From Escherichia phage IME08, in the sequence record NC_014260.1: DNA of 64,000 nucleotides. One strand, 5' to 3'. Position numbers and translations under genes: made by a program. Of this stretch, positions 14,706-37,838 are shown piece after piece (positions within the stretch are counted from its first letter, which is position 1; each line of letters begins with the position of its first letter). The notes beneath the pieces are model-generated. The model had not been told where the DNA came from. It saw only the letters and a list, made by a program, of their open reading frames with translations, and did no database searches.

Positions 14706-15227
14706 TTAATAACCTCGGTCTTGACGAGCAAAGTTCTCGGCATTTTTCAGATAATACAACTTAAAGATTTCTTCAGCAGTCAGTCCAAGGCCTTGGAACA
14801 TATTCAGAACGAAATGGAGAATATCAATCATTTCAAATTTAATTTCGAGCTGGTCTTCAGGAGAGAGTTCGTCAATACGACGGTTACGGAATTCACCATG
14901 TTGAGCTTTCCAAGGCTTCCACACACTAGATGCGGCTTTCTCGCCATTGCTCATGCCACCAAGAGAAGTCAACAGTTCACGGAATTCGTCATCAATATAA
15001 TCTTTCTGGTTGCGAAGCCAATCGACAACTTGACCTGCAGTAGCCAGTTCATCGGGGTTAGAGTTAAATTCAGATTTTTCAGTAGCCAAACGGACCTGTA
15101 ATGATTTCTGCATATCAAGCATAACCTGCAGAGGGTCTTTATCTTCATGAATCAGAGCATTAAAATAAGCTTCCTCAGCTTTATCAACACCAGAAATCAA
15201 ACCACTACATTCGTTAAAAAATGCCAT
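14706..15227 (-). CDS. 56: dCTP pyrophosphatase (MazG-like dCTPase)
   Basis: 173 aa; position after soc; all-alpha MazG-like sequence with the EExxE signature pattern; size matches T4 gp56. Confidence 0.85.
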   Translation of the reverse strand: MAFFNECSGLISGVDKAEEAYFNALIHEDKDPLQVMLDMQKSLQVRLATEKSEFNSNPDELATAGQVVDWLRNQKDYIDDEFRELLTSLGGMSNGEKAASSVWKPWKAQHGEFRNRRIDELSPEDQLEIKFEMIDILHFVLNMFQGLGLTAEEIFKLYYLKNAENFARQDRGY

Positions 15228-15231
15228 TATA

Positions 15232-15888
15232 TTATTTCCTATTAAAGTTTTCTATCATTCGTCGATAACAAATATCAGGATATCCATTATCAACAGCTAT
15301 TTTATTAAATTTGGTGCGTTTAGGTTTATTATTGTAAACCCATAATTCATAAAGCATATCGTAACTATTCCATATTTCTCCGCGCCTAGGATTTGGCAAA
15401 CCATATCGAGGGGAATCTTTACCACTAAATCTTCCTTTTCTAGCTTTACTCATATTGGCCTTAGCTTCATCAGATATAATTTTATCTTTATGAGCCAGGC
15501 GCATTTTGGCTTTAGTTTCTTCAGGAGTTTTCATCCCTCTAATCCAGGAAGGTTTACCAAACATCGGGTTATTTTTTCCTGAAAATGCTTTAGCGTTATT
15601 TTCTCTTAACGTGGCTATAGTTCTACTAGTTAATTTAACTCCTTTATTATATCTCATTAAATTAACAGCATAATGTAGACCTTTTACTTCGGGATATATT
15701 TTTGTTAAAAGCCTATGAGCTACAAAGTGTTCTCTTGGCAATAAAGCAACTAAATTGTTTTTATCATCAGAACCATTCATACATCTAGGTATAACATGGT
15801 GTTCTTCCGTATAATATGATAAAGACCGCTTAGAACCTCTTAATTTTCCTTTAGATATTAATTCCTGGTATATTTTTTCGTAATTCAT
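15232..15888 (-). CDS. HNH homing endonuclease with NUMOD-like repeats
   Basis: 218 aa; HNH motif EEHHVIPRCMNGSDDKNNLVALLPREHFVAHR; repeated NPMFGK/KDSPRYG modules; AT-rich ORF inserted between gene 56 and gene 61. Confidence 0.8.
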   Translation of the reverse strand: MNYEKIYQELISKGKLRGSKRSLSYYTEEHHVIPRCMNGSDDKNNLVALLPREHFVAHRLLTKIYPEVKGLHYAVNLMRYNKGVKLTSRTIATLRENNAKAFSGKNNPMFGKPSWIRGMKTPEETKAKMRLAHKDKIISDEAKANMSKARKGRFSGKDSPRYGLPNPRRGEIWNSYDMLYELWVYNNKPKRTKFNKIAVDNGYPDICYRRMIENFNRK

Positions 15889-20984: not shown

Positions 20985-21304
20985 CTCTTAGATTTAATTT
21001 TATCCAGTTCTTCTTGTATTTGCATTGTAACACATTTTTCTACATGAAGCGCTAGCTCTTCTTTTCGGTCTTCGGAAGGTGTTCCGAAATCAACCGACAC
21101 TTTTCCATCTTTCTCAATAACAATATTCATCACATAAACGATGTGAGCAGTGCCATCGGGTAAAGTAAGCATAATTTCCTGCTTAACAGAACCCATTGAC
21201 TTACGGATTATATCTAATGATTTCTCATAATAACGAGGGTCACTAGGACCCTCTTCGGTATCTTTAACAAAATTATCTAAATCAGATAAATCAGTCATGG
21301 TCAC
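20969..21304 (-). CDS. 40: gene 40-like head assembly protein
   Basis: 111 aa between uvsX and 41; positional assignment. Confidence 0.55.
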   Translation of the reverse strand: MTMTDLSDLDNFVKDTEEGPSDPRYYEKSLDIIRKSMGSVKQEIMLTLPDGTAHIVYVMNIVIEKDGKVSVDFGTPSEDRKEELALHVEKCVTMQIQEELDKIKSKRWWKW

Positions 21305-22472
21305 TCACAAAATTCATATTTTCTAAATCGTTTTCGATGTCAGCAGCGCTTTGGGTATTTCCACCTAATTTAACAGCAACGTTCTTAGAGACACGAGAGT
21401 TAATAAGGTCGTTCACTGCATCGTCAACTTCTTTAATAGAATTAATTGCACCGAGCTTATACTTATTCTCGATTGCTTCACGGAACGGGGCATGTTTAAA
21501 CAGCGGTCCCCAGAACTCAACACAATCGGTAGCTTTAGCACGCCATGCTTTTTCTTCTTGAACCATTTCGCCTGTGGTTTCGTCAAGGAATGCACGATTA
21601 TACCAACCAGCTTTAGGTTTCACGACAAAGCCGATATCAGTAGCCATTTCAAGCAATCCACTGAATGGGTCGATACCGCCTTCAAAGTTAACGGTGATAG
21701 GGAACGTTGATTTCTCTTTAACCGTACGAGATTTCTCAGCCTTCAGTGTAAAGTCATAACCTGTGAGCTCGGTACCATCTTTAACCTGACGTTTAGAGAT
21801 AAAGAACACGGTAGAAGCAGAGTACAGAATACCAGTACCACCACCCATAATCTCTTTAGGGTACATTCCACCAATTTCCATAGCCGTGTGGTTAATTGCT
21901 ACACAAGGGATGTCCTTGATGGTCAGATAAGGTGTTACGATACGGAACAGAGATTTCAGTGACTTAGCACGAGTCATATCACCTACAACTTTCTCGTTCA
22001 AAGCATCTTCAGTTTCTTTCTTAGAAGCGGTGTTACCAATGGAGTCGATAAAGATGATAACCTTTTCGCCACGAGTAATTTCTTCTAACTGGTTGGTCAT
22101 ATCAACCTTAAGCTGTTCGACTGATTGGATTGGTGTATGAACCACACGTTCCAGGTCAACACCCATCGAACGGAAATAAGATTCTGAAGCACCAAACTCA
22201 GAGTCATAGAACAAACAAATTGCGTCTGGATATTTCTTCATATATGCCGCAACCATGGTAAGTCCAAACAATGTTTTAAAGTGTTTAGATGGAGCAGCAA
22301 AGATTGTCAAACCTGATTGTAAGCCTGCATTCAACGCACCACCTAATGCAATATTCAACATAGGGATACGAGTAGGAACTTCGTCACGACCATTAAACAA
22401 TTTAGATTTGGTCAGGTCGGCAGTCATTTTAGAAGTAGAAGCTTTAATCAAACGGGATTTTAAATCGGACAT
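21291..22472 (-). CDS. uvsX: UvsX RecA-like recombinase
   Basis: 393 aa; first 15 aa MSDLKSRLIKASTSK identical to recalled T4 UvsX, homology throughout. Confidence 0.95.
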   Translation of the reverse strand: MSDLKSRLIKASTSKMTADLTKSKLFNGRDEVPTRIPMLNIALGGALNAGLQSGLTIFAAPSKHFKTLFGLTMVAAYMKKYPDAICLFYDSEFGASESYFRSMGVDLERVVHTPIQSVEQLKVDMTNQLEEITRGEKVIIFIDSIGNTASKKETEDALNEKVVGDMTRAKSLKSLFRIVTPYLTIKDIPCVAINHTAMEIGGMYPKEIMGGGTGILYSASTVFFISKRQVKDGTELTGYDFTLKAEKSRTVKEKSTFPITVNFEGGIDPFSGLLEMATDIGFVVKPKAGWYNRAFLDETTGEMVQEEKAWRAKATDCVEFWGPLFKHAPFREAIENKYKLGAINSIKEVDDAVNDLINSRVSKNVAVKLGGNTQSAADIENDLENMNFVSDHD

Positions 22473-22549: not shown

Positions 22550-22681
22550 TTATTTTATTCCTCGGTTGATAGCCTTATCGACTATCTTCCGGACTTCTCG
22601 TTTCTCGAGCCAGCATAATAATAACAAGGCTCCGAAAGAGAATAATAACAAAATTATAAAAAGCAATAAAGGACCTAGCAT
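22550..22681 (-). CDS. small single-pass membrane peptide
   Basis: 43 aa hand-translated (MLGPLLLFIILLLFSFGALLLLCWLEKRE...); GAGGA SD 6 nt upstream; ATG overlaps stop of the 297-aa ORF. Confidence 0.45.
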   Translation of the reverse strand: MLGPLLLFIILLLFSFGALLLLCWLEKREVRKIVDKAINRGIK

Positions 22682-23568
22682 ACTACGTCCTCATAACTTG
22701 GCATTTCGTGCTCAGAATGGATATGGGCACCGAAATAAATGAATTCAGCTAGACCAGGATGGAATACTAAACCAGGATTCTCATGATAAATGATATGAGG
22801 TCTTGATTTCAGAATCTGGTAATATTCAACCTTACTCGGTTTGAATTTAATAATCTCTACATCAGGACGATAGTCTTCGCGCTTAAATGAATCATTCGGG
22901 TCGGTGATATAAAGACGAGCACCTTCAGCTGCAGCTTGGTCTACAACTCTTTCGAATTGATAGCATTTATCTGAGATACGGAACGGATGGAAAATACCAT
23001 CAATTTTAATAGGCGCTAGACCTTCAGAGTAACGCTCAATTACTGCAGGATTAATTACCTTTTGGTCTACAAAAATCTTATCAGAGGATGCACCTCGTGA
23101 CACCAGGACGTCTTTCTGGCATTGATTCAGGACTGTAGTATAAATCGAACGTTCAACTGAAGACACGTCGATATCAATGAACTCATCAATATAATAACGA
23201 GGAACTTCAGGGTCCATTGTAATGTTAAAGTTGAATTGTACAGTCTGAGCACCATCATAACCTGTGATATCGGTTACTAATCCTGAGCAGTCATAGTATT
23301 CGATTAACGAATCAACGACGAACTCATTTTCAGACCAAAAATGTTTACGAGTTTCATAAGCATTTTCTTTATACCAAAGCGGCACAAAATTCAGTTCAGG
23401 AAATAATTCAATGCATTCTTTGATATCGCTCGAATTTCTAGGATAAGCCAGATAATCACCTGGGCGAGCACGGTTTAAATGGAGTTGAAAATTACCGTCC
23501 TTAAGGACGGCATATTCACCTGTTTCGTAACTACGCATACTGAAAATAGGAACGATAAACAGACTCAT
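22675..23568 (-). CDS. unknown protein occupying the beta-glucosyltransferase slot; candidate DNA-modifying transferase
   Basis: 297 aa between uvsX and gene 42 where T4 has beta-gt; no resemblance to recalled T4 beta-gt; function inferred from synteny only. Confidence 0.6.
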   Translation of the reverse strand: MSLFIVPIFSMRSYETGEYAVLKDGNFQLHLNRARPGDYLAYPRNSSDIKECIELFPELNFVPLWYKENAYETRKHFWSENEFVVDSLIEYYDCSGLVTDITGYDGAQTVQFNFNITMDPEVPRYYIDEFIDIDVSSVERSIYTTVLNQCQKDVLVSRGASSDKIFVDQKVINPAVIERYSEGLAPIKIDGIFHPFRISDKCYQFERVVDQAAAEGARLYITDPNDSFKREDYRPDVEIIKFKPSKVEYYQILKSRPHIIYHENPGLVFHPGLAEFIYFGAHIHSEHEMPSYEDVVC

Positions 23569-24263
23569 TTCAGGAATCCTCGAACGTAGTCAAAATCGCG
23601 TTCAAATACGTGTGCACTAACCATAGTATGGGAATATGTACCCAGACCAACACCACACTGTTCGGCAATAAAGGCCATCAGTTTACCTTGCAGATAGAAA
23701 TCCAGCTGCATAACGATAGCACAGTTCTGTGAACGCATATGAGTGTGTGCATACAGACGTCCATCACGAATATAATATGTTACCGAATCGGTGCATGGAT
23801 ATTCTAGGGACTCGTCAGAATCAAGGAGTGCTTGGTCTTGTTCTTGGAGAATTTGGAATACTACACGTCGTGAGTTTTCTTTTTCTTTAAGCTCTTTAAG
23901 TAAAGCTGGAAGTTGTGCGACAATGCGAGGGCCATAAAAGGTATTGAAATTCGCAGGCAATACGTCACTTTTCGGCTTATCAATGAACTTAGCAACATTA
24001 GGGTATTCCTTAAATGCTTCGGCGGCATCAGTACCACCGGAAATCATAAACTTCCAGAAAGATTCGGCATAATCATAGTTGATACGATTAATACGAGGGT
24101 CTGTGAATTTATAGGTGCTTGCATCCAGTACTTCTACCGAAGCAGAACCAATTTCATAACAACGGCCGATACGAGAATCAACTGCAAACTGTGGAGCTTC
24201 CAGGATTTCTTCGTTCATTTGCTTAAACGCGTTTTCAAAACTAACAGCGGTAATGTGTTTCAT
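23565..24263 (-). CDS. 42: dCMP hydroxymethylase-like (thymidylate synthase fold)
   Basis: 232 aa; catalytic-Cys region PCTDSVTYYIRDGRLYAHTHMRSQNCAIVMQLDFY parallels T4 gp42 MCTNTVQYLIRDKK..NMRSNDVVFGF. Confidence 0.75.
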   Translation of the reverse strand: MKHITAVSFENAFKQMNEEILEAPQFAVDSRIGRCYEIGSASVEVLDASTYKFTDPRINRINYDYAESFWKFMISGGTDAAEAFKEYPNVAKFIDKPKSDVLPANFNTFYGPRIVAQLPALLKELKEKENSRRVVFQILQEQDQALLDSDESLEYPCTDSVTYYIRDGRLYAHTHMRSQNCAIVMQLDFYLQGKLMAFIAEQCGVGLGTYSHTMVSAHVFERDFDYVRGFLK

Positions 24264-24796
24264 TTATTCACCTTATTTTCAATATATTCATTCAGACGTT
24301 TTAATTCTACCATATCGACGTTAAGCAAGTTATTATGGCCGTCGTGATTTAAGATTTTAAACACGTTTTCAAAACATGTTTCATATTGCCTGATAGTTAG
24401 GTTGAACTCATCTTTGGTTAATTTAATAAGGTCGTCTTCAAAGTCTTTATCCAGTGGATTACGGGTTAAAATAACCTCAATAATATTGAATTCAGATTTA
24501 AACCCTTTCCAATCTTCCAGTTCTACATAAGGGTCCATTTCACCACGAAGGAATCCAGAGTAAACAATATTACTAGGATATCCACGGTCTAAGATGTAGA
24601 CAAAATTAGGGTCTAAAAACTTATACAACGTCTCGACTAAAGCCTTGTCATTATCGGTCCCTAATGAAATGCATTTGCCATTAATCTTTTTAGGGAAATC
24701 AATAAGACGATATTTCTTATCAGATAAAAGTGATTCAATTAAAGTAGACTTCCCGGAATTATCCGGGCCGTCGATAACAATTATTTTTGGTTTCAC
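24260..24796 (-). CDS. P-loop kinase (dNMP/thymidylate-kinase-like or polynucleotide-kinase-like)
   Basis: 178 aa; Walker A IVIDGPDNSGKST at N-terminus. Confidence 0.7.
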   Translation of the reverse strand: MKPKIIVIDGPDNSGKSTLIESLLSDKKYRLIDFPKKINGKCISLGTDNDKALVETLYKFLDPNFVYILDRGYPSNIVYSGFLRGEMDPYVELEDWKGFKSEFNIIEVILTRNPLDKDFEDDLIKLTKDEFNLTIRQYETCFENVFKILNHDGHNNLLNVDMVELKRLNEYIENKVNK

Positions 24797-25191
24797 GGAT
24801 GATATGCCTTATAGGTTTCAAGAGTTCCTTCACGAACCATTTCTTTAAAGTGGTCAGGACGGATTGCTCGGTCATCGATGATAAAAGTATAACTCGGCTT
24901 ATGTGTAAGCAGATTATGATATTTCAATCCAATCTTTTCAAGGTTCTTAACCAATGCAGGAACTACTTCAACCAAGATTCGACCAGGGCCGCATGAAGTC
25001 ATACCACGAGCAGTGAACAATGTAATCTCGTACCCTTCATCATAAAGCTTATTAATCATAGACACCATTTCGGTGTCCGGTTTAAAGTTTTCGTAATCAC
25101 GGTCATGGTTCCAAATCGTGATTGTGTTATCGATGTCAAAACATAAATGAGGCTTATTTTCTACTCGATGTGACATTAAATTTTCTTCCAT
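24793..25191 (-). CDS. HAD-superfamily phosphatase
   Basis: 132 aa; motif I CFDIDNTIT (DxDxT) near N-terminus. Confidence 0.7.
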   Translation of the reverse strand: MEENLMSHRVENKPHLCFDIDNTITIWNHDRDYENFKPDTEMVSMINKLYDEGYEITLFTARGMTSCGPGRILVEVVPALVKNLEKIGLKYHNLLTHKPSYTFIIDDRAIRPDHFKEMVREGTLETYKAYHP

Positions 25192-26849
25192 TGTTTGTGG
25201 AGTTCAGTAGAACCTGTAGGTTTATATTTTACACCAGTTTCTTGGTCAAGCAAAACCCACTTATCAGGACAACGAGTGATAATTTGAGCCGTGATAGGGT
25301 CGCGAACTTCATCAACGAATTCACCTGTGATAAGCTTACGCTTACGAGGATGCCGCTTCAGCAGCACACTCAGTTGATATAAACCATTGTAATAAGCACC
25401 CAGAGCTTTCAGAGGGTTATTTTTAAAGTAACCTGCCAATGCCATCCAGATAACAGCAATCCAGAGCTTGTGCTTAAATGTACACATTGGAATATCATCT
25501 AATGGCATAACCTTTTCAATATCAACGAATACACGAGTTCCGTTACGAGTTAAGCCACCCCATAGAGGGTCGGAGTTAAATTTGTCATAACCATCGATAG
25601 AATAAAGCACCTTAGCTTCGTCATAAATCGCAGGGCCTTTAGAACTATTACCAAAATAACCACGTGGGTCGATGATTTTAATATCACCTTCGTCCGACAA
25701 CATAATATTACTGTAGTGCGGGTCACCATGAATAAGTTGGTACGGTTCTTTATGTTCAGACAGAATTTCTAAGGCGTGACGAAGAAGTTTTTCTGGGTCA
25801 CCTACCTTAAAGTCATTGACATGGGTAATGCCCTGTGGAGCAAAGCCTTCAATCAATCCAGCAATAGAAGCATTACGAATAAGGACCTTGTCCAATACTT
25901 CTTTCTTAACATCAGAATACCATTGCTCATCAGATGGATTATCGATAGTCCCACCGAATGAACGCAATGCACTAATGACCTTATAAACCATGAGGACTTT
26001 AGTTTCTTTAGACATAAACCGGTAGGCATCTGCCATAGTACGACCAAAGATACGTTCCATTTTAATGAATTCACCTGGAGCAAAGTCTACAATGCTCGGA
26101 ACGAATTCAGAATCAATAGAATTGTACCAATTGATTTCTTTAGATTGGATTTCTTTACCTAATTCGTTGGTAGGTACTTTAATAGCCAGATTCTCAGTGA
26201 ACTCTAATTTATTAAATTCACGGTTAATTTCAGAATCTTCATGAGCCTTAGCCAGTTTCAGTTTGTCACCGACATCAACTACAAAGTCCAGCTTACGTTC
26301 AGTCAAATGGACCATTGAATCCAGATTGTCAGCAAGGTCTTCGCCGTAATTAGAACCGTTAAAACCTGTCCAATTGGCTACTTGATACAAACCAACTACA
26401 CCGCCACCGGTACCAATTTCACGCAGGTACGGTTCTTCAAATGTAAAACGACAGTCGGTCCCATAGGTATAACAGTAGTCGTTATCCCACTCAACTTTAT
26501 GGCCCTCAGGAATGATGTCACACCAGTTAAACAGGACATTGTGCCCGATGATATCTTCAGCAATGCAATCGATAGCATGAGCTGAGCCATTGGCAACATC
26601 TACGTTACGAATAGTGAATTTAGGCTTATCGCTGGTAATCATGTTAATGGATTTAATATAACCCTTAACGAGGTCATTAAATTTGCTATGAATTACCAAA
26701 ATGATTTCATCTGATTGGTTACTATACAAATCATACAAATGTTTTAGTACTGTATGTTGTTTGTAGTTAACCAATACCTTCGGGATTTCGTTAGTAATTG
26801 GATACAACCGTGAGCCAAGACCCGCGCCTAAAATAACAACCTTTTTCAT
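25176..26849 (-). CDS. bifunctional nucleotidyltransferase / APH-choline-kinase-like kinase
   Basis: N-terminal ILGAGLGSRL sugar-phosphate nucleotidyltransferase signature; C-terminal LIHGDPHYSNIM...IIDPRGY kinase motifs; start set at MKKVVILGAG with GAGGAA SD. Confidence 0.8.
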   Translation of the reverse strand: MKKVVILGAGLGSRLYPITNEIPKVLVNYKQHTVLKHLYDLYSNQSDEIILVIHSKFNDLVKGYIKSINMITSDKPKFTIRNVDVANGSAHAIDCIAEDIIGHNVLFNWCDIIPEGHKVEWDNDYCYTYGTDCRFTFEEPYLREIGTGGGVVGLYQVANWTGFNGSNYGEDLADNLDSMVHLTERKLDFVVDVGDKLKLAKAHEDSEINREFNKLEFTENLAIKVPTNELGKEIQSKEINWYNSIDSEFVPSIVDFAPGEFIKMERIFGRTMADAYRFMSKETKVLMVYKVISALRSFGGTIDNPSDEQWYSDVKKEVLDKVLIRNASIAGLIEGFAPQGITHVNDFKVGDPEKLLRHALEILSEHKEPYQLIHGDPHYSNIMLSDEGDIKIIDPRGYFGNSSKGPAIYDEAKVLYSIDGYDKFNSDPLWGGLTRNGTRVFVDIEKVMPLDDIPMCTFKHKLWIAVIWMALAGYFKNNPLKALGAYYNGLYQLSVLLKRHPRKRKLITGEFVDEVRDPITAQIITRCPDKWVLLDQETGVKYKPTGSTELHKQWKKI

Positions 26850-26909
26850 TATCTGTTCCTCAAGTGAATGTAGGTACATTATACACTATTTTTAATAAAT
26901 TGATATTGC

Positions 26910-27410
26910 TTAAATCTTATCTTTACCGATTTCAATGCACTGTTCTATTGCTGCTGGCACTTTGGTCTTGAGCTTATTGATTTGTTTCTTATAATCACGG
27001 GCCTTATCGAAGCTCTCGGTTTCGAGCATTTCGTAATAACGAGCCTCGTGGATGGAAATCTGTAGATTGATATGGTTTACGCACATCGCATACAGTTTCT
27101 GCTTTTTGTACAAATCATCTTGGCGCTTCATTTCTGCCTGGTGTTTGGCTAGTACCGCTTCACGCTTAGACTCTTGTTCACGTTGGAATTCAATTTCTCG
27201 TTGAGCATATTTTGCACAGTTATTACCGCATTGATTATTAGCTCGGGTATACACAAGTCCAGAACCTGCACGGAATTTCATTTCGCCATCGAATTGTTTC
27301 TGTTCAGCTGCGATACGAGCTTTACCGACTTCATCAGCCGAAACTGCATCACCATATTGGACCGCGCAACCTGATAGGAGCATACTCATTGCGATAATTA
27401 ACTTTTTCAT
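26910..27410 (-). CDS. putative lipoprotein
   Basis: 166 aa; signal peptide with lipobox LSGC; coiled-coil-like charged body. Confidence 0.6.
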   Translation of the reverse strand: MKKLIIAMSMLLSGCAVQYGDAVSADEVGKARIAAEQKQFDGEMKFRAGSGLVYTRANNQCGNNCAKYAQREIEFQREQESKREAVLAKHQAEMKRQDDLYKKQKLYAMCVNHINLQISIHEARYYEMLETESFDKARDYKKQINKLKTKVPAAIEQCIEIGKDKI

Positions 27411-27419
27411 TGGATTCCC

Positions 27420-27656
27420 TTACTGTTTAACAATGATGATTTGTGCATTTGATTTACGTTCAGCGACGATAGCCCAGATTAAAGCCACTACCCAACCAAT
27501 CATCGTCCAACCTAACAGGAGATTAAGGAAGAAAATTCCTACATTACTACGAGTGCCTCGCAGAAGAGCCAAAATCCATGGTAAAAAGTAACCGATGAAC
27601 ATAATAGCCAGAGAACCAAATCCTAAAACACCAGCACTAACGATTAAAGCTTCCAT
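27420..27656 (-). CDS. imm: immunity to superinfection membrane protein
   Basis: internal start MEALIVSAGVLGFGSLAIMFIGYFLPWILALLRG matches recalled T4 Imm; two TM segments. Confidence 0.8.
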   Translation of the reverse strand: MEALIVSAGVLGFGSLAIMFIGYFLPWILALLRGTRSNVGIFFLNLLLGWTMIGWVVALIWAIVAERKSNAQIIIVKQ

Positions 27657-27674
27657 TATAATTTCCTCTAAGTA

Positions 27675-27717
27675 GTTGATAGGAAGGATACTACCACGTT
27701 CCATGTGGTATGTAAAC
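27675..27717 (-). promoter_or_regulatory. sigma70-type early promoter (GTTTAC, 18 nt, TAGTAT)
   Basis: gttgatagg...gtaaac between gene 43 stop and imm start. Confidence 0.5.
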
Positions 27718-27719
27718 AC

Positions 27720-33409: not shown

Positions 33410-33865
33410 TTAAGCAATAACGATCATTTGTTTACGAATGGATTCAGGCAGAGATTCAATATACTCTGGGATTTGGGAAGCAACAATAGCACCGGCTTCA
33501 AGCAATTGTTCGTCAAAATCTACGCAATAATCATCTTCGAGACGTTCAGAACCATCACGGTCGATAACCAGTTTAGCACCTGCGGCCAGTGAATCATTAT
33601 AGTGGCGACGCATAATTTCTACCCACTTATCGGATACGTCGTTATCAATGATACCGTAGAGCATGAACTTAGTTTCTTGTGGAAGAGACTGCAGACGACG
33701 TGCAGAGTCGGTATCAATGTTCAGTACCCATGATTTACGGATACGGTTTTGATTATGTGGGTTGGAATCAGTACGGATAGTTTTAACTTGGATATCTTTA
33801 ACAGTAATAGCGTTAGCAAACATAATATTTTCTCTCATTTGGTTGGTAGATGTATTATAAATCAA
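33410..33865 (-). CDS. hypothetical protein (rpbA position)
   Basis: 151 aa ORF after gene 45; positional assignment only. Confidence 0.5.
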   Translation of the reverse strand: MIYNTSTNQMRENIMFANAITVKDIQVKTIRTDSNPHNQNRIRKSWVLNIDTDSARRLQSLPQETKFMLYGIIDNDVSDKWVEIMRRHYNDSLAAGAKLVIDRDGSERLEDDYCVDFDEQLLEAGAIVASQIPEYIESLPESIRKQMIVIA

Positions 33866-36215: not shown

Positions 36216-37234
36216 CGTGTAACCTCATTATAAAGTTGTGCAGCCATAGTCTTAAGGGCTTTAACATCGTCTTCAGTGTGGCCATCAGGAAGGGCGTCGA
36301 TATAATCATACATCATATCCAAGAGGGACTTAACTTCATCTTCCTCTTCAGAATCATCGATATCAACACTGTTATCTACCTTAGACACGATACGTAAAGA
36401 ATGGACGACCTTTTCAAGCTCTGATTCGAACTTAGTAAGGCCATCATCGATTTTATCGACTATAACACGAACTGCAATATTTGTAAAATCTTTGTAATCG
36501 ATAGTCGCGTTAGGATAATGAATCTTACGGTGCCAACAGGTTTCATTGATGACGAAATCCATTGTATGGGTTTCTGTATCGAAAATCCAGAAGCCGCGAG
36601 GGTCGTTTTCATCACCTGCAGTCAGGGTCCATGGCGTACCAATATACTTAACGTTTGCTGCATCAGAAATAGTGTGGAAGTGGCCTGACCAAACTTGCTT
36701 ATACCTCTTAAGGAAATCAGGTTCTAAACCATGAGATTTCATTCCTTTATAGAAATAGAAACCATTTAATTCCCAGTGACCTATACAGAAATCTGCTGTA
36801 GTATTTTTGATATGGTCCATGATATCAGTAGTGTTTTCTTCACACATCCATGGAATCAAATCAATTTCGGTACCATCAAAGTTAACCGTAGTAGGTTTCT
36901 CAATAACCTTGATATGGTCGTATTTACCCAGAACTTCAGAAGCAGCGTTCGGAGTCAAGGTATTTTTGTAGTGTGCATCATGGTTGCCGACGACAGTATA
37001 CATGGTAATGCCGTTGGTTTTAAGCAAATCTGAAATATGTCTAGCAAATTCCATACACTTATGAGTAATTGCTTTACGAACATCAAAAATATCACCATAC
37101 TGAATCCAGACAGTGATACCATTTGCTTTAGAATAATTGATGGCATCTTTGATGCCTGCCAATTGGATGTTTTGCACCCAAGGGTCGTCGTTCTTCACTC
37201 CAAGGTGCCAGTCACCCGTATTAAGAATTTTCAT
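36212..37234 (-). CDS. 47: recombination endonuclease subunit (Mre11/SbcD-like phosphoesterase)
   Basis: start set at MKILNTGDWHLG (phosphoesterase motif I); GNHD motif present. Confidence 0.9.
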   Translation of the reverse strand: MKILNTGDWHLGVKNDDPWVQNIQLAGIKDAINYSKANGITVWIQYGDIFDVRKAITHKCMEFARHISDLLKTNGITMYTVVGNHDAHYKNTLTPNAASEVLGKYDHIKVIEKPTTVNFDGTEIDLIPWMCEENTTDIMDHIKNTTADFCIGHWELNGFYFYKGMKSHGLEPDFLKRYKQVWSGHFHTISDAANVKYIGTPWTLTAGDENDPRGFWIFDTETHTMDFVINETCWHRKIHYPNATIDYKDFTNIAVRVIVDKIDDGLTKFESELEKVVHSLRIVSKVDNSVDIDDSEEEDEVKSLLDMMYDYIDALPDGHTEDDVKALKTMAAQLYNEVTR

Positions 37235-37838
37235 TACGTATTCGTTCCCACATTTTGGAGGCTGCTTTAGAAGCAGAGCCAGGAAGTTTACCTTTGACCC
37301 ACCCATCAGGAATATTAGATGGGTTAATCAGTTTATGTTCTATTCCGTTATTATACCACTTCCTGCCCTTATTATGACTAGATGCTTTATAATTAGGTGA
37401 ACGACCTTCTACATATCCTTCGGGGACTGTAGGTGCAAAGGTTTGTTCTAATGTAACAGGATTATAGGAATGAATATACCCTTTAGCATTATGAGAGCCG
37501 TAAAGAGGGTGTTGCTCTTTAGGTAGCGAAAGCCCAAAGAATCCTTTAGGAGCTGCGACAGCCCTATTAAAGAATAGAGGATTTTGGGCTGCATCGGTTC
37601 TTAACTGGTACATTCTTTCAGCTTCTAAAGCCTCTTCTCTTGTAGGGTGTTCACTTACAATACATGAGTCAAATAATTCTGGATGCTCTAAAAGCTCATT
37701 TTTATAGATTTCTTTATATGCTTTAGAAAGGACACTCCCGTGATATCCTTTTAAATGCTTCTCTAAAGTGGTAGACCCTATATAAAACGGTGGAAGCTTA
37801 GTCCCGGAATATATTGTCAGGTATGTGATGTATTTCAT
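37221..37838 (-). CDS. GIY-YIG homing endonuclease (Seg-like)
   Basis: 205 aa; N-terminal YLTIYSG...FYIGST GIY-YIG motif; C-terminal NUMOD-like GRKWYNNG. Confidence 0.7.
   Translation of the reverse strand: MKYITYLTIYSGTKLPPFYIGSTTLEKHLKGYHGSVLSKAYKEIYKNELLEHPELFDSCIVSEHPTREEALEAERMYQLRTDAAQNPLFFNRAVAAPKGFFGLSLPKEQHPLYGSHNAKGYIHSYNPVTLEQTFAPTVPEGYVEGRSPNYKASSHNKGRKWYNNGIEHKLINPSNIPDGWVKGKLPGSASKAASKMWERIRNENS
37221..37838 (-). mobile_element. seg-like homing endonuclease gene where T4 carries alpha-gt
   Basis: located between gene 47 and gene 55. Confidence 0.55.

Follow-up and report, generated by a model that had tools for sequence, protein, structure and literature searches.

The 64,000-nucleotide stretch of Escherichia phage IME08 analysed here (sequence record NC_014260.1; hereafter the window) contains, at 22675–23568 on the minus strand, an open reading frame (ORF) for a protein of 297 amino acids (aa). 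This protein is probably the first (base-proximal) sugar transferase of a pathway that hypermodifies DNA with arabinosyl-5-hydroxycytosine. Four observations carry this assignment: the fold of the protein, its orthology, the context of its gene, and the absence of other glycosyltransferases (GTs) among those searched for.

The ORF opens with ATG and, being conserved, is a genuine gene and no chance occurrence. It is matched end to end (residues 1–296, E 1.3e-158) by phrog_3891, annotated as "unknown function", and homologues are carried by 351 phage records (tblastn). A search of 5.8 billion proteins returned 117 relatives with identities of 32–99%, and the precomputed annotation records a Pfam domain in none of the 117. 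An exhaustive hidden Markov model search of 1.84 billion cluster representatives gave 244 family members only. The family is small, and it is phage-associated in each context examined. The window is that of a T-even phage and belongs to the genus Dhakavirus (JS98, Bp7, IME341 and AnYang; nucleotide identity of 93–97%); the copy of the ORF in AnYang, a complete Dhakavirus genome of 169,215 bp, is 99.7% identical. The gene is located between uvsX (21291–22472; Pfam T4_UVSX_C and RecA) and a gene of the thymidylate synthase family; in other words, it occupies the slot of the β-glucosyltransferase gene (beta-gt) of phage T4, where the order is uvsX - segA - beta-gt - 42. The preliminary description of this DNA had given the ORF with the same boundaries and length and had named beta-gt as the T4 gene at the equivalent place, both correctly. 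The slot it proposed, between uvsX and "gene 42", also stands; the identity of the neighbour as gene 42 does not, as this gene seems to be of the 5-hydroxy-dCMP synthase type. At the other end, a small ORF of 43 aa (MLGPLLLFIILLLFSFGALLLLCW...; 22550–22681, minus strand), whose product has a single hydrophobic helix, overlaps the stop codon of the 297-aa gene. About 129 nt of this region (22553–22681) are missing in AnYang and are found in IME341 and JS98-type genomes.

An AlphaFold2 model of the protein, built from an 88-sequence alignment, showed two halves of alternating strand–helix elements. The mean predicted local distance difference test score (pLDDT) was 95.7, the predicted template modelling score (pTM) was 0.90, and no residue fell below a pLDDT of 70. 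A Foldseek search against the PDB gave 85 matches at E <= 1e-3, and the top 50 were without exception UDP/NDP-sugar enzymes of the GT-B fold; many GT-B structures were matched at a probability of 1.00. The best TM-scores were obtained with retaining transferases of family GT4: MshA (3c4q; 0.64), BGluT (5ze7; 0.59), PglA, BshA and HepE (0.58 each) and WbnH (0.57). In BFVD, a set of predicted viral structures, most of the named matches beyond the protein's own family were viral glycosyltransferases. The modelled protein can thus be assigned with confidence to the GT-B glycosyltransferase fold, with its two Rossmann-like domains and the cleft between them.

This fold is visible by structure alone, and the sequence-level links all failed. 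A Pfam scan gave no family at E <= 0.1, with Glycos_transf_1, Glyco_trans_1_4 and NTP_transferase included, and searching all PDB sequences with the profile of the 297-aa family yielded noise only and no GT. Comparison of the family with RB69 gp3 gave an hhalign probability of 0.2% and no tblastn cross-match. Judged by these searches and by the comparison with beta-gt described below, the protein belongs by sequence to none of GT4, GT63 and the gp3/Aat family.

The invariant residues of the C-terminal half begin after its first strand (P195-F196-R197, D200 and Y203) and continue with T222, P224, N225, K246 and H270. P271 and G272 are near-invariant, and positions 263 and 275 are always occupied by Asp or Glu. 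In the N-terminal half, R12, D24, Y66, R74, D100, R124 and D128 are invariant. The invariant residues seem to cluster at the nucleotide-sugar site of the GT-B fold and might correspond to GT4 motifs. The GT4-type enzymes MshA, BshA, PglA, WbnH, HepE and the pterin glucosyltransferase BGluT are the best structural matches (TMq 0.57–0.64, probability 1.00). The likeness might extend to two positions, the conserved Arg that follows the opening strand of the C-terminal domain and an acidic one in the last helix, which would lie where the UDP phosphates and ribose are bound. In contrast, the protein is only 9–12% identical to these enzymes, is 50–100 residues shorter, and has no Pfam Glycos_transf_1 match; the EX7E motif of GT4 is not recognisably kept (E263 ... 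H270-P-G ... E275), and the predicted acceptor is a nucleobase.

RB69 gp47 shares 69% identity with residues 1–179, and RB69 gp46 shares 64% with residues 184–296. According to Lee et al. (NAR 2026, PMC13326640), a sequencing error had divided a single ORF into RB69 genes 46 and 47. In addition, the protein is 63% identical to UYM28689 of phage LC53 and 51% identical to TH1_063 of Shewanella phage Thanatos. By these alignments, it is the full-length Dhakavirus orthologue in the RB69 gp46:47 / DLP3 gp79 / LC53 / TH1_063 family. Lee et al. labelled RB69 gp46:47 "arabinosyltransferase 1", with gp79 of Acinetobacter phage DLP3 as its counterpart, and proposed that it adds the first arabinose; the top PDB match of their model was 3c4q, the same as here. 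They also listed the Dhakaviruses, from synteny, among the genera carrying the arabinosylation cluster (PMC13326640). The enzyme family is known from the 2025–2026 literature, and the Dhakavirus protein adds a member to it, not a discovery. The proteins from RB69, DLP3, LC53 and Thanatos are of similar size (about 300 aa), and their genes adjoin that of a 5-hydroxy-dCMP synthase of the Asn type described below. The companions in RB69 and LC53 are of the same kinds as in the window, namely a thymidylate kinase-like (TMK-like) kinase, a HAD phosphatase and a kinase/nucleotidyltransferase. The gene order differs: the kinase gene is upstream of the gene for the thymidylate synthase (ThyA) homologue in Dhakavirus, whereas in RB69 and LC53 it is downstream of the GT gene.

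The acceptor base is suggested by the neighbouring 232-aa ThyA homologue. This protein was 78% identical to RB69 gp48 and, in a three-way alignment, only 28% identical to T4 gp42. Experiments have established RB69 gp48 as a flavin-associated 5-hydroxy-dCMP synthase. Both the window protein and RB69 gp48 have the sequence MRSQN, with Asn at the position of Asp169 in E. coli ThyA, whereas T4 gp42 has MRSND; Asn at this position is diagnostic of a 5-hydroxy-dCMP synthase (Lee et al., PMC13326640). The neighbour is thus predicted to be a 5-hydroxy-dCMP synthase homologue and not a dCMP hydroxymethylase. When the AnYang genome was searched by tblastn with T4 gp42 and RB69 gp48, no dCMP-modifying gene of the ThyA family was found besides the Asn-type homologue and the classical td gene. 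Therefore, from the identity to RB69 gp48 and the diagnostic Asn, the acceptor is predicted to be 5-hydroxycytosine, with the sugar ether-linked on C5, and not 5-hydroxymethylcytosine (hmC). A GT gene beside an Asn-type ThyA homologue is also found in RB69, Thanatos, LC53 and a 383-kb metagenomic phage contig (L008), and the trio of Asn-type ThyA homologue, GT and kinase recurs in RB69, LC53 and this contig, whose GT is 38% identical to the 297-aa protein. GenBank MH051917.1 labels the orthologue of the 232-aa protein "dCMP hydroxymethylase".

The sugar is suggested by the remaining genes of the module. The 567-aa protein shows Pfam matches to NTP_transferase (E 3e-8) and APH (E 1.3e-5) and is 41–45% identical to RB69 gp52/gp53, and the HAD phosphatase is 63% identical to RB69 gp51. 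Their HY126 counterparts, AfhE and AfhF, are reported to be UDP-arabinose-forming enzymes, and AfhE to have UDP-arabinose pyrophosphorylase activity, according to He et al. as cited by Lee et al. (PMC13326640). By analogy, the 567-aa protein is predicted to be an arabinose-5-phosphate 1-kinase and UDP-arabinose pyrophosphorylase, and the HAD phosphatase is predicted to turn arabinofuranose-1,5-bisphosphate into arabinofuranose-1-phosphate. Because these neighbours match AfhE and AfhF, the sugar is predicted to be arabinose and not glucose. The 178-aa kinase is 37% identical to RB69 gp45 (tblastn E 5e-30). Its gene is intact in AnYang; an apparent truncation there is an annotation artefact resulting from the GTG start. 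Start and stop codons overlap at the first four junctions, which join the genes of the 567-aa protein, the HAD phosphatase, the TMK-like kinase, the ThyA homologue and the GT; at the last of these the ATG of the GT gene overlaps the upstream stop (ATGA), and AGGA lies about 10 nt upstream. Scanning for promoters and terminators gave no useful signal, with 19 promoter-like sites where 16.7 were expected, and the operon structure of the module is proposed because of these overlaps. Apart from the module, a gp56-type enzyme would provide dCMP for the modification and draw down dCTP, on the basis of Table 1 of Lee et al. (PMC13326640) and the analogy with T4 gp56. The coordinates of these genes are collected in Table 1.

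Table 1. Genes of the window assigned to the predicted arabinosylation pathway
Feature	Positions	Strand	Evidence	Homologue or predicted role
297-aa GT-B-fold protein	22675..23568	minus	ORF call, phrog_3891, AlphaFold2, Foldseek	predicted base-proximal arabinosyltransferase on 5-hydroxycytosine
232-aa thymidylate-synthase homologue	23565..24263	minus	Pfam Thymidylat_synt E 5e-13	predicted flavin-dependent 5-hydroxy-dCMP synthase
178-aa P-loop, thymidylate-kinase-like kinase, GTG start	24260..24796	minus	phrog_761 "thymidylate kinase" E 2.4e-39	RB69 gp45 homologue
HAD-type phosphatase, ~120-132 aa	24793..25191	minus	phrog_1238 E 3.5e-42	RB69 gp51 / HY126 AfhF homologue
567-aa bifunctional nucleotidyltransferase (N-terminal) and APH-type kinase (C-terminal)	25176..26879	minus	phrog_4098 E 3.9e-269	RB69 gp52:53 / HY126 AfhE homologue
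gp56-type dCTP/dUTP pyrophosphohydrolase	14706..15227	minus	phrog_173 nucleoside triphosphate pyrophosphohydrolase, E 2.6e-44	

No other transferase of the kinds searched for was found. In the window, tblastn at E <= 1 gave no RB69 gp3, RB69 gp55 (arabinose-5-phosphate isomerase), RB69 gp50 (Peptidase_U32 family) or T4 beta-gt, and the complete AnYang genome at E <= 0.1 gave none of these four and no LC53 chorismate mutase. The interval between rIIA and gene 39, the site of RB69 gp3, contains small ORFs only, and between genes 47 and 55, at the site of alpha-gt in T4, lies an HNH homing endonuclease gene (37221–37838, minus strand). The 297-aa gene is thus the only GT-like candidate found in the window or in AnYang. 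Compared with the RB69/LC53 type, the Dhakavirus module is without arabinose-5-phosphate isomerase, U32 protein, chorismate mutase and gp3-type second GT. RB69 gp3, DLP3 gp76–gp77 and "Aat" are the second and third arabinosyltransferases; they belong to the same pathway and share the GT-B fold, whereas they form a different family and lengthen an arabinose already present on DNA. For DLP3 gp76 and gp77, UDP-arabinofuranose (UDP-Araf) has been shown to be the donor, and the third arabinose was added on DNA in vitro (Lee et al., PMC13326640).

The distribution of gp3 bears on the role of the 297-aa family. Homologues of gp3 were found in 212 phage records (tblastn). All matches from E. coli and Shigella phages were >= 95% identical to RB69 gp3, which fits Mosigvirus, a genus with gp3-type GTs; the rest were almost all from Acinetobacter phages, and there were no Serratia phages among the matches. 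The DNA of Serratia phage LC53, which has a GT of the 297-aa family, carries mono-arabinosyl-5-hydroxycytosine, whereas that of the Mosigvirus Bas46 is di-arabinosylated. This contrast is the best indirect evidence and suggests that the 297-aa family installs the base-proximal sugar. As no second GT was found in Dhakavirus, a single arabinose is predicted; in other words, the minimal five-gene module would give mono-arabinosylated DNA. The absence of an arabinose-5-phosphate isomerase from the genome implies reliance on arabinose-5-phosphate of the host. E. coli KdsD and GutQ make this compound for Kdo synthesis.

The following pathway can be proposed, in which the donor, the acceptor, the stereochemistry and the choice between DNA and nucleotide as acceptor are predicted from the observations above. 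The gp56-type dCTPase would give dCMP, which the ThyA homologue would hydroxylate to 5-hydroxy-dCMP; this would be phosphorylated by kinases and put into DNA by gp43 in place of C. The 567-aa protein and the HAD phosphatase would turn host-made D-arabinose-5-phosphate into UDP-Araf. The 297-aa enzyme might bind UDP-Araf in its C-terminal Rossmann domain, with R197, D200, K246, H270 and E275 as candidate residues, and would move the arabinose onto the 5-OH of 5-hydroxycytosine. This transfer is probably retaining, as in GT4 enzymes: the base-proximal arabinose is alpha-linked (Lee et al., PMC13326640), and this linkage, together with the GT4-like fold, suggests a retaining mechanism. The resulting O-arabinosylated cytosine would protect the DNA against restriction enzymes and CRISPR nucleases. 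In natural fusion proteins, the GT is joined to a HAD phosphatase domain or a TMK-like kinase domain, which ties it to the same pathway.

Several points weigh against this assignment. In the literature covered, transferase activity is reported for no member of the family. Individual DLP3 GTs did not arabinosylate DNA containing 5-hydroxycytosine (5hoC-DNA) with UDP-Araf or UDP-arabinopyranose (Lee et al., PMC13326640). TH1_063 showed no pentose transfer, with acceptors lacking a 5-OH, and was reported as a UDP-xylose pyrophosphorylase (Brandt et al., AEM 2025, PMC12838424). The lowest Foldseek E-values (about 1e-5) belong to UDP-GlcNAc 2-epimerases, which have the GT-B fold and are not transferases. 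The family is acidic, with an isoelectric point (pI) of 4.88 for the 297-aa protein and a median of 5.2, against 9.05 for T4 beta-gt; this is unexpected for a DNA-binding enzyme. Finally, no data on the composition of Dhakavirus DNA were found in the literature.

Some of these points could be accommodated if the acceptor were a mononucleotide. The enzyme would then glycosylate 5-hydroxy-dCMP or the diphosphate, the TMK-like kinase would phosphorylate 5-O-arabinosyl-dCMP, and gp43 would incorporate the pre-glycosylated triphosphate. We regard this as unlikely. The kinase gene is beside or near the GT gene in every cluster checked (the window, RB69, LC53 and two distant metagenomic contigs), and it has no assigned job, since a gp1-type dNMP kinase already makes 5-hydroxy-dCDP, which is enough for incorporation into DNA (Lee et al., PMC13326640). 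In at least nine metagenomic representative proteins (e.g. P0210 and P0220), the GT is fused to a kinase with a common "EGFDRIGKD" P-loop. One such fusion, on an IMG/VR contig, belongs to a complete cluster of the arabinosylation type, with genes for a SIS isomerase, an AfhE-like protein, a KdsC-like HAD protein and a U32 protein next to it, and two fusion proteins are on contigs too short for gene context. A KdsC-like HAD domain is fused to the GT in eight other representatives; a fusion of genes indicates a shared pathway and not consecutive steps. The fused domains were identified by Pfam and motif inspection, and BLASTP with the kinase and HAD proteins of the window missed them. Several of the best structural matches, MshA, BshA and BGluT, act on small-molecule acceptors. 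The acidic pI of the 297-aa protein (4.9) points in the same direction; it is weak evidence, as the pI of RB69 gp3 is 6.3. To our knowledge, every characterised case of phage DNA glycosylation is post-replicative, and a sugar hypermodification made at the nucleotide level would, if true, be the first of its kind. In the work of Lee et al., with the DLP3 GTs singly inactive on 5hoC-DNA, a first arabinosylation on the nucleotide or on DNA was indistinguishable; the third arabinose was added on DNA, and 5-hydroxy-dC entered DNA readily without glycosylation (PMC13326640).

It is rather improbable that the 297-aa protein is itself a UDP-pentose pyrophosphorylase, or another enzyme that forms or interconverts UDP-sugars (an epimerase- or mutase-like GT-B enzyme), which would supply the donor to a different transferase. 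Purified TH1_063, with 51% identity, formed UDP-xylose from UTP and xylose-1-phosphate in vitro; this assay had a no-enzyme control only (Brandt et al., PMC12838424), and a co-purified host enzyme could explain the activity. The fold of the 297-aa protein is GT-B and not that of a nucleotidyltransferase, it has no Pfam NTP_transferase match, and a nucleotidyltransferase domain is already present in the 567-aa neighbour, whose orthologue AfhE is the one reported as active in the account of He et al. given by Lee et al. The E-values of the non-hydrolysing UDP-GlcNAc 2-epimerases would favour an interconverting enzyme, whereas the TM-scores favour transferases (0.57–0.64) over epimerases (0.45–0.55). 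Furthermore, without the 297-aa protein no GT candidate of the kinds searched for would be left in the Dhakavirus genome.

The preliminary description had named the ORF as the best candidate for a missing DNA sugar transferase or for another enzyme acting on hmC. The first part was largely right, since the protein has the GT-B fold, belongs to the arabinosyltransferase 1 family and is the sole GT-like gene product found. The action on hmC is not supported, and the chemistry appears to be different, as the neighbour is of the 5-hydroxy-dCMP synthase type (MRSQN; 78% identity to RB69 gp48) and no other gp42-like gene was found in AnYang. That the protein is a strongly diverged beta-gt, or otherwise acts on hmC, is very improbable. 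It shares the slot with beta-gt, and the fold of T4 beta-gt is also GT-B. The similarity does not extend to the sequence, as had been noted from the letters alone: BLASTP between the 297-aa protein and T4 beta-gt gave E 0.59, and hhalign of the 88-sequence family profile gave probabilities of 0.13% against T4 beta-gt and 0.16% against a 31-member profile of the beta-gt family. PF09198, which covers all 42 of 42 beta-gt relatives, gives no match on the 297-aa protein. No hmC-type synthase was found by tblastn in the complete AnYang genome, and a diverged beta-gt is effectively refuted. The absence of a recognisable motif, also noted before, agrees with the lack of any Pfam family at E <= 0.1 and of any match among PDB sequences. 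Comparison with GT-A and GT-B folds had been suggested as a check; it led to GT-B (pLDDT 95.7; Foldseek against the PDB and BFVD), and neither an unrelated fold class nor a hidden beta-gt came to light. A structural protein was rejected. What the two enzymes have in common is the slot, the GT-B architecture and the logic of placing a sugar on a C5-oxygenated cytosine against restriction. In contrast to T4 beta-gt (CAZy GT63, PF09198), the predicted acceptor is 5-hydroxycytosine, with an ether link direct to the ring, and not hmC; the predicted donor is UDP-Araf and not UDP-glucose; and the 297-aa protein is probably retaining (GT4-like), whereas beta-gt is inverting.

An RNA polymerase binding protein, for which the database labels are the sole argument, is hardly credible and is rejected: the fold is GT-B, and the true RpbA homologue, annotated in AnYang and LC53, is encoded elsewhere (33410–33865 of the window) and gives a BLASTP E of 0.24 against the 297-aa ORF. 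The label "(putative) RNA polymerase binding protein" is attached to orthologues in GenBank MH051917.1 (AWD92164.1; L007 2501–3394) and OP617331.1 (LC53 UYM28689.1; L010 5576–6487).

Some further observations concern the related clusters and the surroundings of the module. The 383-kb contig, which has T4-like structural genes, encodes in L008 6426–9576 a Flavodoxin_2 protein, a 107-aa ORF, the Asn-type ThyA homologue, the GT and a TMK-like kinase; no nucleotidyltransferase was found near this cluster. The Flavodoxin_2 protein, as a dedicated flavin reductase, would suit a flavin-dependent hydroxylation. A protein of the Peptidase_U32 family recurs in arabinosylation clusters (LC53, L010 7182–8692; RB69, L001 8257–9662; L009 9049–10125; L016 12642–13742). 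In LC53 its neighbour is a chorismate mutase of type II (Pfam CM_2, E 1.7e-11); in L009 and L016 it lies next to the GT, and the stretch covered contains no ThyA homologue. Two U32 proteins, RlhA and TrhP, depend on prephenate when they hydroxylate cytidine and uridine at C5 in rRNA and tRNA. The pair of U32 protein and chorismate mutase may constitute a second pyrimidine-hydroxylating route. Homing endonuclease genes take up variable slots in the window: besides the HNH gene mentioned above, a Seg-like one (15232–15888, minus strand) adjoins the dCTPase gene. Identity to AnYang is only about 77% in this dCTPase gene, whereas it is 94–97% in its flanks. Two proteins are encoded between the module and the DNA polymerase gene (26910–27719, minus strand): one of 166 aa, whose N-terminus resembles that of a lipoprotein (phrog_1754, unknown function), and one of 99 aa, in which Pfam recognises a superinfection-immunity domain (Imm_superinfect, E 9e-18). 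This matches the position of T4 imm.

The present analysis reclassifies a Dhakavirus "hypothetical protein" as the likely key transferase for arabinosyl-5-hydroxycytosine DNA. What it adds is the corrected reading of "gene 42" and "hmC", the correction of database labels, the minimal five-gene architecture, the mono-arabinose prediction and the clue given by the kinase fusions. With five genes, the Dhakavirus module is the most compact form of the pathway encountered in this analysis, and it would be a convenient minimal system for reconstituting the first glycosylation. Dhakavirus coliphages figure in phage-therapy studies. If the assignment is true, the DNA of these phages would be singly arabinosylated and free of hmC, which would bear on how sensitive they are to restriction, CRISPR and type IV systems, and on their sequencing and engineering.

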